Below are positions 16,383 to 19,034 of a stretch of 33,079 nucleotides of DNA, one piece after another; position 1 is the first letter of the stretch, and each line of letters opens with the position of its first letter. Both the position numbers and the translations under genes were made by a program. The notes under the pieces were generated by a model. It searched no databases. It was not told the origin of the DNA and saw nothing but the letters and a program-made list of their open reading frames with translations. The stretch lies in the IMG/VR virus record IMGVR_UViG_2698536401_000003; one strand, 5' to 3'. The stretch comes from a virus (taxonomy: Duplodnaviria > Heunggongvirae > Uroviricota > Caudoviricetes).

Positions 16383-17429
16383 TTAAAAATCTTTCGTTAT
16401 TTCTCTGACCGTCTGATTAAAACGCTCCTCTTCCAGTTCCACGCCAATCGCCCTGCGTCCCAGCGACAGTGCTGCTTTTATTGTCGACCCCGACCCCATA
16501 AAAAAATCTGCGACCAAATCGCCTGGACGGCTGCTGGCAGTAATTATCTGACGCAACATATCCGCCGGTTTTTCACAGGGATGTTTACCCGGATAATACT
16601 GCACGGGCTTGTGCGTCCAGACATCCGTATAAGGAACGACAGCCGATACGGAAAAATAACGCCGCAGTGATTTGTATTCCTCCAGCAGGCTGGCATATTG
16701 CCGGTTCAGTTCGCTGTATGTGCTGATCAGCTGGTGGTGTGGCTGCTCCAGTTCACCGCGCTGGTGTTTTTCTGCCGCAACACGCGCAAACAACGCCTGC
16801 AGTTTACTGTAATCGGCCTCATTCGGTAACTGCCACTGACTGGTACCAAACCAGTGCGAAGCCATGTTTTTCTTTCCGGTGGCTTCTGCTATCTGTTTTG
16901 ACGTTATCCCCAGTGATTCACGCGCATCACGAAAGTAAGCAATCAGCGGGGCCATTACGTGCTGCTTAAGCTCGCGCCCTTTTGCCGCATAGCCGTCATT
17001 TTTTGGCTGATATGGCCCCTGATAATGTTCGGCAAACAGAATGCGCTCTGTTGCCGGGAAATACGCCCGCAGGCTTTCCTTGTTGCACCCGTTCCAGCGT
17101 CCGGACGGCTTCGCCCAGATAATGTGGTTCAGCACATTAAAGCGTTCACGCATCATGATTTCGATATCAGATGCCAGGCAATGACCACAGAACAGGTAGA
17201 GACTTCCGGCAGGTTTCAGTACCCGCCAGAACTGCGCCAGACACTGAGCCAGCCATTTCAGGTAATCATCGTCCCCCTTCCACTGGTTATCCCAGCCCTC
17301 GGGCTTCACTTTAAAGTATGGCGGGTCTGTGACTATAAGATCGACAGAGTTTTCCGGTAAGGTCCGGATAAATTCCAGGCAATCAGCGTTGATTAACTCA
17401 CAACTGGATATTTTTACAGCATTAGCCAT
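16383..17429 (-). CDS. Orphan DNA methyltransferase (beta-class N6-adenine/N4-cytosine MTase)
   Basis: N-terminal catalytic motif IV (LIVTDPPYF) and C-terminal AdoMet-binding motif I (DLVADFFMGSGSTIKAA), the order typical of beta-class amino-MTases. No adjacent restriction endonuclease gene. Confidence 0.85.
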   Translation of the reverse strand: MANAVKISSCELINADCLEFIRTLPENSVDLIVTDPPYFKVKPEGWDNQWKGDDDYLKWLAQCLAQFWRVLKPAGSLYLFCGHCLASDIEIMMRERFNVLNHIIWAKPSGRWNGCNKESLRAYFPATERILFAEHYQGPYQPKNDGYAAKGRELKQHVMAPLIAYFRDARESLGITSKQIAEATGKKNMASHWFGTSQWQLPNEADYSKLQALFARVAAEKHQRGELEQPHHQLISTYSELNRQYASLLEEYKSLRRYFSVSAVVPYTDVWTHKPVQYYPGKHPCEKPADMLRQIITASSRPGDLVADFFMGSGSTIKAALSLGRRAIGVELEEERFNQTVREITKDF

Positions 17430-17565
17430 GGATCAATAAGCACTTCTCTGATAGGCTCATACCGCTTTTGCGCAAAGCAGATGGGCCTGAGGTTTGCTTG
17501 TGATCCCAACGCATGAGCAGATGGCTGGCAGGTGCCGCTAACACCCACCAGCCGCCCATTACCAC

Positions 17566-17593
17566 AAATTAAAAAGCCTTCACTGCGGAAGGC
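17566..17593 (-). terminator. Rho-independent terminator overlapping the 3' end of the small upstream gene
   Basis: Minus strand: GCCTTCC-gcagt-GAAGGC stem followed by TTTTTAATTTG. Confidence 0.5.
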
Positions 17594-17777
17594 GTCTGTA
17601 ACAACCGAACTGATAATCTGCCAGACCCGCCATAACAAGCTGGGTCAGTATTAACTGGCAGCGTTCGCGTGAAAGGTAAGTATTCTGCGCAATTTCCCCG
17701 ACGGTCGCCGGTTCGGTGACGCTTAATTCATTAAACACCACTCTGGCGGTTTCGGTCATATCCTGCTGTTTTAGCAT
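17580..17777 (-). CDS. Hypothetical small protein (65 aa), possible winged-helix DNA-binding fold
   Basis: ORF 17580..17870 trimmed to the ATG at 17777 (MLKQQDMTETARVV...) with a purine-rich SD; flanked by its own terminator. Confidence 0.45.
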   Translation of the reverse strand: MLKQQDMTETARVVFNELSVTEPATVGEIAQNTYLSRERCQLILTQLVMAGLADYQFGCYRRLPQ

Positions 17778-17898
17778 GTCTTTTTTCCTTTTCCGGTTAA
17801 CGTGACATACCAATAACTCTTGTCCAAAAAGCCAGCAAGCTGAAAGACCAGTATTAATAACCACCAGCACATTTAACGCACTGCGCTACTTTGCGGGC

Positions 17899-17924
17899 AC
17901 AAAAAACCCGCTCAGAGGCGGGTT
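17899..17924 (-). terminator. Rho-independent terminator downstream of the CPBP protease gene
   Basis: Minus strand: AACCCGCC-tctga-GCGGGTT stem followed by TTTTTTGTG. Confidence 0.55.
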
Positions 17925-18063
17925 CAGGCTATGAGGTGAAATAACCACTCTTAAAAGCATACATGATTTTTTACGTACGTAAATGCTTTGCCGTGCATAT
18001 TTCTCATGCAAATGTCACATCCTGTTATTTTTCAGTGTTATAAATTTAAAGCCATAGAAAAAA

Positions 18064-18888
18064 TCAATTATGTTTTAAGAATGGATAGGTAAAGAATAAC
18101 AAGTGACACAGATTCAGACCAAAATGGAAAAGGGTTGCCACCCACAAGCGCCCACTCCACATCCATGACAATCCATACACAACACCAGATAACGTAGCAA
18201 ATAATACAAGTAAAGCACCACCTGAATAGTGATAAAAACCAAACAACAAAGACGCCACAATTAACGCAATCAATGGAGACGTTACTTCTGATAGCCGTGA
18301 TTGAATATACCCTCTAAATAATGATTCCTCTGCCAGAGACACAAAAAACAAATTAGCCAATATAAACTCTGGCAACCACTCAGGAAAATGAATCTCTGGT
18401 TTTAACCCACCAAAAAAAACAGCCAAAAACAGGATAAGAGGAACAGAGAGCAACAGAGCCCCCCATTTCCACAAAGACACTTCTGATTTCACTTCTTTTT
18501 TAAACAAAGAAGCTGTACACAGGACTAACAAAAATGGCACCAGCGCTTTATCAAAATTAAAATACATTGTATAGGGAGTGCTTTGAGGTCCGACAGTAAC
18601 AGACTTTAGCACTACAGGATTGTGAAACCCTGGCCATAAATGGAAAGATAATGCTATGGCTGATAAAACTATGCCAGCTTCATATATGGATTTAGCCCAG
18701 GCGTTATATTTCCAGTTGAACTTCAAAATAATAAAAAAAACGATTGTAGAAACAAAAAACAACACAGGCCAATCAATAATATCATTAAGCATAGCCAGGA
18801 CAACAGACACCGTCAACAATGAAAAAGCCACTACCTTATGCCAACTGAGAGTTGACAGTGCCAGTGCTAACACAATCCACATAAACAC
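18064..18888 (-). CDS. CPBP-family intramembrane metalloprotease (CAAX protease/Abi family)
   Basis: 274 aa polytopic membrane protein with the three CPBP signature motifs: EESLFRGY (EExxxR), FGFYHYSG (FxxxH) and HFGLNLCH (HxxxN). Sits in a markedly AT-rich block with its own terminator. Confidence 0.8.
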   Translation of the reverse strand: MFMWIVLALALSTLSWHKVVAFSLLTVSVVLAMLNDIIDWPVLFFVSTIVFFIILKFNWKYNAWAKSIYEAGIVLSAIALSFHLWPGFHNPVVLKSVTVGPQSTPYTMYFNFDKALVPFLLVLCTASLFKKEVKSEVSLWKWGALLLSVPLILFLAVFFGGLKPEIHFPEWLPEFILANLFFVSLAEESLFRGYIQSRLSEVTSPLIALIVASLLFGFYHYSGGALLVLFATLSGVVYGLSWMWSGRLWVATLFHFGLNLCHLLFFTYPFLKHN

Positions 18889-19034
18889 TCCTTTTATTTA
18901 ATGATGAAGCTTGATTATCAATATTTTCAATTCACCTGGCAACATTTTGTTTACTTTCCATAAAATTCACGACCACAAAAAATAAACACATTGATTATAA
19001 ACACAGAAAACATAACCATAGTCACTATATATCC

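Follow-up and report, generated by a model that had tools for sequence, protein, structure and literature searches.

A CPBP-family protease gene carried as cargo between Q and the putative late promoter of a lambda-like Escherichia coli prophage

What does a gene for a predicted intramembrane protease do beside the late-gene antiterminator of a lambdoid prophage, and does it belong to the late operon at all? The question is raised by a 33,079-nt stretch of DNA (IMG/VR record IMGVR_UViG_2698536401_000003), called the window below, which is a lambda-like Escherichia coli prophage. Positions are those of the window, and the genes of the region examined all lie on the minus strand. A first-pass annotation had placed here an AT-rich moron at 17414-19034, carrying a CPBP/Abi-family protease gene with its own terminator at the site where Shiga toxin (Stx) phages carry stx. 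We find that the CPBP gene is compositionally foreign cargo and not backbone. The comparison with related prophages suggests, however, that it lies between Q and the late promoter PR', in the slot of the porin gene nmpC and not in that of stx, and that the terminator behind it is the tR' of the backbone. As to the identity of the protein and the genomic anatomy we are close to certain. The elements on which the argument rests are the following.

19035..19409, minus strand: Q late-gene antiterminator of the QuuD/H-19B type, 124 aa (PF06530, E=4.5e-51), which borders the cargo slot on its upstream side
18914..18942, minus strand: predicted sigma-70 promoter of the CPBP gene, with -35 TTGCCA at 18942-18937, a 17-nt spacer and -10 GATAAT at 18919-18914 (10/12 consensus match)
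18888..18893, minus strand: Shine-Dalgarno sequence AAGGAG, read from the sequence, followed after 5 nt by the ATG at 18882 and kept in related loci
18064..18882, minus strand, stop codon included in the end coordinate: CPBP/Rce1-like intramembrane glutamic endopeptidase (PF02517)
17970..17983, minus strand: perfect palindrome TTTACGTACGTAAA (TTTACG-TA-CGTAAA), overlapping the -35 element and spacer of the putative late promoter and forming the downstream border of the cargo slot
17956..17983, minus strand: putative late promoter PR', with -35 TTTACG at 17983-17978, a 16-nt spacer and -10 TATGCT at 17961-17956, preceded by TG
17901..17925, minus strand: Rho-independent terminator, putatively tR', with an 8-bp stem, a 6-nt loop and U6 (free energy -13.3 kcal/mol, z = -3.3)

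Read mechanically, the open reading frame (ORF) of the gene runs from a GTG at 18888 (18064..18888, minus strand, 274 aa). This is the ORF that had been reported, but the likely start is the ATG at 18882, which gives 272 aa as in RefSeq. The protein matches PF02517.21 (Rce1-like) with E=9.4e-20 and 71.2 bits, against a cutoff of 22.4, over residues 171-260 and profile positions 3-92 of 93. The motif strings EESLFRGY, FGFYHYSG and HFGLNLCH are all found in the translation and read E185-E186-x3-R190 (EExxxR), F214-x3-H218 (FxxxH) and H253-x3-N257 (HxxxN/D). In an alignment of 33 homologues E185, E186, R190, F214, H218, H253 and N257 are invariant, as are several family-specific positions in the N-terminal half. 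A family-specific loop (HLxPGFHN ... MYFNFDKALxPF) is conserved in the same alignment, together with other non-catalytic loops. The AlphaFold2 model built from these homologues (pLDDT 95, pTM 0.91) has a polytopic alpha-helical membrane fold like that of Rce1. Structural matches came from fold searches, with SpdC as the closest one, while a sequence search of PDB chains returned no match to the protein. Identity to the PF02517 structures of M. maripaludis Rce1 (4CAD) and S. aureus SpdC/LyrA (6U0O) is only 14-18%, and the conserved loop and the N-terminal helices have no characterised counterpart in the family. Membership of the CPBP/Rce1-fold family with an intact catalytic set, as the first-pass annotation had claimed, is thereby established from sequence and model, and protease activity is predicted. 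It should be kept in mind that CPBP folds can be non-catalytic, as in SpdC, and that "Abi", Pfam's old name for PF02517, is a historical label and no evidence of abortive infection. PHROG 13291 matches the protein from end to end, the identical sequence is already public under a generic PGAP name, and the viral CPBP folds in BFVD are all distant ones. That phages can carry CPBP genes is already known, though these are uncharacterised.

Is the gene cargo or backbone? Its GC content is 0.385, compared with 0.502 for the remaining window, and the CPBP genes of five related loci (L009, L011, L013, L095 and L096) have the same low GC. The low-GC block extends from ~17950 to ~19250 and takes in the CPBP gene with its flanks, where GC falls to 0.25-0.34, as well as the 3' part of Q. 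The moron drawn earlier was therefore right in its core and too long at one end: GC across 17414-17950 is 0.41-0.57, which is not AT-rich, and 17400-17979 shares 86-93% identity with phiP27 and Stx2 phages by megablast, the phiP27 homology resuming at window position 17961. The stretch 17414-17950, including a TrmB-like ORF with a GC of ~0.5, is backbone and lies outside the cargo. The phiP27 and Stx2 phages that have this same flanking backbone lack the CPBP gene. Thus the gene is present or absent at one position among relatives and differs in GC from its flanks, as is characteristic of a moron; no virion or lysis annotation is attached to it.

The variability of the position becomes clear from 119 viral contigs collected by the palindrome motif and leader pattern described below, 97 of which have Q in the fetched DNA. 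The contents of the slot between Q and the motif in these 97 contigs are as follows.

Empty slot, 46-62 nt from Q to the motif: ~24 contigs
Porin gene on the opposite strand, ~1660-1680 nt: ~60 contigs
ORF6N-domain protein, ~880-1085 nt: ~12 contigs
CPBP, ~1053 nt: 5 contigs
Various other contents, at other distances: a few contigs

The porin cargo corresponds to nmpC, and the ORF6N cargo gives weak PDC-S05 matches in PADLOC. In phiP27 the equivalent slot is taken by gene L22 (L001 5592-6821), annotated as a GIY-YIG nuclease family protein, which matches PADLOC PD-Lambda-1 with E=2e-89 over its C-terminal half. An anti-phage gene may thus lie between Q and PR' of this Stx2e phage. Both L22 and CPBP occupy an equivalent slot, next to related Q proteins (48% identity) and a conserved leader and terminator, but there is no sequence or fold relationship between the two, and the likeness is positional only. 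Relatives with the same Q type have the slot empty or otherwise filled, in agreement with the first-pass proposal that the gene is cargo.

What then marks the downstream border of the slot? We compared four diverged CPBP alleles, namely those of the window, L009 (84% aa identity), L011 (62%) and L013 (60%). In all four, TTTACGTACGTAAA stands 3' of the CPBP gene, with a -10-like TAT(G/A/T)NT 8 nt beyond it and then a short leader and an intrinsic terminator. In the window the predicted start of PR' is near 17949 and the leader TTAAGAGTGGTTA follows; variants of this leader occur in L011 and L013, and it is not recognisable in L009. The resulting leader RNA, predicted to be made constitutively, would be ~49 nt long (~17949 to 17901, minus strand) and contain TTAAGAGTGGTTA. 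Across the comparative loci the palindrome is present after every QuuD-type Q, whatever the cargo, and in ~50 viral contigs the unit is found ~1660 nt past Q, beyond the porin gene. DLP12 of K-12, whose QuuD shares 83% aa identity with the window Q, has nmpC in opposite orientation between quuD and the unit (palindrome at L094 6197-6210), with essD immediately beyond. In the Stx1 phage H-19B the symmetric variant TTTACGATCGTAAA (L144 3430-3443) is separated from the end of the Q match by 62 nt that contain no gene, and is followed by a -10 element, the leader GATAAGAGTGGTTAC, a terminator and stx1. A second set of Q alleles is likewise accompanied by TTTACGATCGTAAA, with unchanged spacing to the leader. 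In phiP27, with its Q of 48% identity, the leader, the terminator and the position of the promoter are kept, but GGAATTCC stands at the palindrome position. The palindrome thus changes symmetrically and tracks the Q allele, not the cargo. Hairpins equivalent to the window terminator are found in L025/DLP12, phiP27 and H-19B.

In lambdoid phages PR' fires constitutively, and RNA polymerase gets past tR' only after modification by Q (PMC7547250). The binding site of Q21 lies between the -35 and -10 of the cognate PR' (PMC6606751), and 82Q probably occupies its own site as a dimer (PMC4914094). The window Q is a distant relative of the Q21 proteins in structures 6jnx and 6p18 (E=1e-7). Because of the positional conservation with Q and these published facts, we consider it very probable that the palindrome, promoter, leader and terminator together represent PR', a Q-binding element and tR', with TTTACGTACGTAAA as the candidate Q-binding element. 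The Q21 element consists of direct repeats, whereas the window palindrome is an inverted repeat. The leader RNA would be the analogue of lambda 6S RNA and of StxS, a regulatory small RNA of Stx phages (PMC7547250). A terminator does exist where one had been noted, at 17899-17924, but it is a backbone element and not the cargo's own, because it lies inside the phiP27-homologous block and is conserved in relatives with other cargo or none. Between the stop codon at 18064 and the palindrome at 17983 there is no CPBP-specific terminator, so the first one reached is tR'. For a sigma-dependent pause element, a -10-like sequence, the leader TTAAGAGTGGTTA offers only weak candidates such as AAGAGT. 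Rfam recognises no known RNA in the CPBP and late-control region, its matches in the window being sok and tRNA only, and a full-text literature search for the palindrome and leader sequences returned nothing relevant.

One could also read the promoter 5' of the CPBP gene as PR' itself and 17925-17901 as its tR'; CPBP would then form the body of a short constitutive transcript and replace lambda 6S RNA. That promoter is a good one, its initial transcribed region contains the -10-like CATCAT, and the first terminator past it is indeed 17925-17901. However, H-19B, DLP12 and the ~24 cargo-free contigs are without the CPBP promoter region and yet keep the unit by Q or the late genes. The unit tracks the Q allele, and a slot that nmpC fills on the opposite strand cannot be part of the late transcript. 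On comparison with DLP12, H-19B and the cargo-free contigs we rejected this assignment, and consider it very improbable. With the unit 3' of the CPBP gene read as PR'-tR', the gene would lie outside the Q-dependent late transcript.

The closest known arrangement is that of nmpC in DLP12. It shares the slot of CPBP, bordered directly by a QuuD-type Q (83% identical) on the upstream side and by the TTTACG..CGTAAA unit on the other, and both genes are AT-rich cargo expressed in the lysogen, which for CPBP is a prediction, and not late-operon genes. The differences are that nmpC encodes an outer-membrane porin on the opposite strand, while CPBP is co-oriented with Q, so that early read-through is possible. 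In phage PA-2, lc is likewise a porin gene between Q and the late promoter of a lambdoid phage. The comparison with stx is less apt than the first-pass annotation had supposed. Cargo of the stx and nanS-p kind shares with CPBP only the broad Q-to-lysis interval of lambdoid prophages, and the analogy is regional: stx lies 3' of the late promoter and terminator in phiP27, L009, L134, L129 and H-19B, whereas CPBP in the window lies 5' of the putative PR'. Being 3' of PR'-tR' and of tRNA genes, stx is expressed in a Q-dependent manner (PMC7547250). Some CPBP prophages also have stx1, a stx2-like gene or nanS-p further 3'. In the window, tRNA-Gly(TCC) occupies the place where Stx phages have ileZ/arg tRNAs and stx, and the stx slot is empty.

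How would a gene in this position be expressed? In the lysogen, CPBP would be transcribed from its own predicted sigma-70 promoter, with a predicted start near 18907, and translated from a strong ribosome-binding site. The pattern TTG(C/T)C(A/T)-17-GATAAT and the Shine-Dalgarno sequence are kept in 39 of 41 related loci. After induction, the N-modified early transcript that makes Q would run on into the CPBP gene, because no terminator-like site was found between the two genes. Transcripts from either source would end at tR', unless the polymerase were modified by Q or N.

Such co-transcription with Q after induction would also suit a role in the lytic cycle, in which the protease is made with Q and processes a holin, antiholin, signal-arrest-release (SAR) endolysin, spanin or host membrane protein, thereby timing lysis or DNA release. 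In its favour, CPBP is always near Q and 5' of the lysis genes, and in prophages with a lambda-type Q it lies inside the late operon, before the holin. Two such loci, L096 (4741-6268) and L138 (IMG/VR and Logan contigs), carry a CPBP of 55-56% identity after an unrelated lambda-type Q (PF03589). Here, unlike in the window, CPBP is 3' of a PR'-tR'-like element and 5' of the holin; the terminator of L096, at 4831-4856, is strong. But the CPBP/Q module is found in combination with three or more unrelated lysis cassettes (holin_8/holin_3_7/GH108; P21-type S with lysozyme; holin_3_1), phages with the same Q and lysis genes manage without CPBP, and homologues are found in non-phage chromosomal contexts. 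A lytic role therefore appears improbable to us.

The gene is widespread in its host. It is present in 572 of 5426 complete E. coli genomes, including O157:H7, O55:H7 and O111, and is frequent in bovine and enterohaemorrhagic E. coli (EHEC) lineages. A further 44 IMG/VR contigs carry it, nearly all with Q immediately 5' and the motif ~84 nt 3'. The late regions downstream are mosaic, with TrmB-methylase-holin_8, TrmB-helix-turn-helix-nanS-p, a P21-type S holin, stx1 or a stx2-like gene. The synonymous divergence (dS) of CPBP follows that of Q, with 0.10 against 0.10, 0.34 against 0.40 and 1.4-2.1 against ~1.5, respectively. The ratio of nonsynonymous to synonymous divergence (dN/dS) of CPBP is 0.13-0.24, lower in the catalytic half, and the Q-linked alleles form one clade in a neighbour-joining tree without bootstrap. 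Because CPBP dS tracks Q dS, dN/dS is low and the alleles are one clade, we regard Q, CPBP and the late-control unit as a single module whose parts have long been linked and which purifying selection maintains.

The Q-CPBP module also occurs in Shiga-toxin prophages, 5' of stx1AB (L009, L134) or of a stx2-like gene (L129). A Q-CPBP prophage of O157:H7 ATCC 43894 (L095) has nanS-p (SASA esterase) after tRNA genes.

Outside phages, relatives of 45-54% identity are found at 224 species-level loci, including Providencia, Proteus, Photorhabdus, Xenorhabdus, Serratia, Enterobacter, Pantoea and some Helicobacter. At the 80 chromosomal loci examined there are no phage genes nearby, gene GC equals flank GC and the homologues are solo genes; no conserved partner gene was seen around them in the contexts examined. 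Because these non-phage homologues are native, with GC matching their flanks, the phage gene was probably captured from a chromosomal Enterobacterales family. A low-GC source of the Providencia, Proteus, Photorhabdus or Xenorhabdus kind would fit its composition.

This origin bears on a further explanation, namely that the phage supplies a protease that matures or degrades host membrane proteins or lipoproteins, or modulates a membrane sensor, and so converts the envelope or physiology of its host without any part in conflict. The staphylococcal SpdC, MroQ and LnsB would be the models, and fitness in the gut or in cattle could be altered. The native solo chromosomal genes of Providencia, Proteus, Photorhabdus, Xenorhabdus, Serratia, Enterobacter and Pantoea speak for it, and so do conservation over the whole length including the non-catalytic loops, SpdC as the closest structural match, purifying selection and the frequency in bovine and EHEC lineages. 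Left unexplained, however, are the diverged alleles that recur by two unrelated Q families and the defence-like gene and porin in the slot of relatives, and neither a partner gene nor a substrate is apparent. We regard this explanation as rather doubtful.

We tentatively favour, though at somewhat short of an even chance, a role in protecting the lysogen by proteolysis at the inner membrane. The CPBP protein would reside in the inner membrane and cleave a membrane-embedded or membrane-proximal polypeptide, thereby protecting the lysogen against an incoming threat. The first choice for this threat would be the entry or development of a superinfecting phage, and the second a membrane-targeting peptide toxin. 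The suggestion rests on the intact and conserved catalytic site, the expression signals suited to a lysogen, the recurrence by two unrelated Q families and the other occupants of the slot. The support from these slot neighbours (the PD-Lambda-1 match of phiP27, the porin and the ORF6N protein) is indirect and comes from position. The lc porin of the related phage PA-2 alters receptor display. The most specific form of the idea appears doubtful to us: that CPBP is an unrecognised single-gene defence, acting in superinfection exclusion or toxin immunity by intramembrane proteolysis, invisible to PADLOC, housed in a Q-to-PR' hotspot of QuuD/H-19B-type lambdoid prophages and found in ~10% of the complete genomes of E. 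coli, O157:H7 among them.

One sub-case of such protection would be orphan immunity to a bacteriocin or microcin, in which the protease would inactivate or block a membrane-targeting peptide of competitors. The protein belongs to the CPBP family with intact catalytic motifs, and its gene has its own constitutive-looking predicted promoter. Kjos et al. reportedly found in 2010 that the CPBP proteins SkkI and PlnI confer bacteriocin immunity dependent on the conserved motifs. These Gram-positive "Abi"/CPBP immunity proteins share the Pfam family and motifs with the window protein, but their genes adjoin bacteriocin structural genes and the window CPBP has no such neighbour. Neither a structural nor an export gene for a bacteriocin, nor a small ORF for a double-glycine peptide, adjoins CPBP in the window or in any related locus examined, and we know of no precedent for CPBP bacteriocin immunity in Enterobacterales. 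Taken together, this sub-case is unlikely.

Several results weigh against a protective role as such. PADLOC-DB 2.0 gives no match at E<=0.01 to the window protein or to three diverged alleles (L013 and L096 among them, 55-62% identical). In NCBIfam no functional subfamily reaches its cutoff; the sub-threshold matches are to myxosortases, MroQ and ABC-permease fusions, and no subfamily is assignable. The annotation of PHROG 13291 is "unknown function", and our search of the literature for CPBP/CAAX proteases, whether in prophages of E. coli or in defence against phages, turned up no relevant paper. By tblastn, none of 50,697 deposited phage genomes encodes the CPBP protein, although 401 encode this Q type; it may be that prophages with CPBP are seldom induced or isolated, or that many of them are defective. 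The N-terminal half is the faster-evolving one (dN/dS 0.26-0.35), with no sign of positive selection. The ordinary solo chromosomal homologues fit a physiological role as well as one in conflict. Promoter activity, the PR' start and the binding of Q to the palindrome are predictions, and AT-rich foreign genes are often silenced by H-NS in E. coli. The link to defence or bacteriocins drawn in the first-pass annotation thus found no backing from PADLOC, from NCBIfam at cutoff or from an adjoining bacteriocin gene, whereas its wording of a candidate and not established host-benefit factor was the right level of claim.

The remaining features around the module are listed below.

20832-19774, minus strand: DUF968/HNH protein (Pfam)
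19773-19396, minus strand: RusA (Pfam)
17580..17777, minus strand: TrmB-like 65-aa ORF, the first gene past the terminator (PHROG 331; weak sub-threshold Pfam TrmB match)
17429-16383, minus strand: N6/N4 DNA methyltransferase (Pfam; PADLOC MTase_II, E=6e-153)
16165-16093, minus strand: tRNA-Gly(TCC) (ARAGORN)
15613-14409, minus strand: two holins and a GH108 endolysin, holin_8/holin_3_7/GH108 (Pfam)

The CPBP gene does stand between Q and the lysis cassette, as had been described, but the TrmB-like ORF, the methyltransferase and tRNA-Gly intervene before the lysis genes. The TrmB-like ORF and the methyltransferase (16383-17777, minus strand) are the first genes past tR' and share 86-93% DNA identity with phiP27 and many Stx2a prophages. 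No restriction-enzyme gene adjoining the methyltransferase was recognised among the ORFs examined. Three successive terminator-like hairpins (15807-15789, 15768-15751 and 15654-15639, minus strand) lie 3' of tRNA-Gly and just 5' of the holin. Further upstream a hok/sok type I toxin-antitoxin system is found on the minus strand, with a Hok-like 70-aa ORF at 22127-22339 and an Rfam sok match at 22277-22451 (116 bits). A Fic/DOC-family protein of 164 aa, within 21228-21959 on the minus strand (PF02661, E=1e-11; weak PADLOC PDC-S23 matches), is preceded by a 75-aa ORF at 21732-21959. These two may form a toxin-antitoxin or defence pair of the nin region.

The gene itself was already generically annotated in hundreds of genomes, and the slot is the classical nmpC/lc position. 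New are the probable place of the cargo upstream of PR', the assignment of the terminator to tR', a hotspot that includes a defence-like gene and a candidate Q-binding palindrome. The junction between Q and the putative PR' of QuuD/H-19B-type phages is a defined insertion hotspot distinct from the stx slot, with a porin, an ORF6N protein, a PD-Lambda-1-like gene (phiP27) and CPBP as occupants, and genes in it are positioned for expression in the lysogen and not for Q-dependent expression. The palindrome TTTACG-NN-CGTAAA may be the Q-binding element of a large family of Q proteins, that of the Stx1 phage H-19B among them. Should the protease prove to protect lysogens, the defences encoded by prophages would gain a membrane-protease mechanism, and it would become clear why hundreds of pathogenic E. 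coli, O157:H7 among them, have kept the gene intact.

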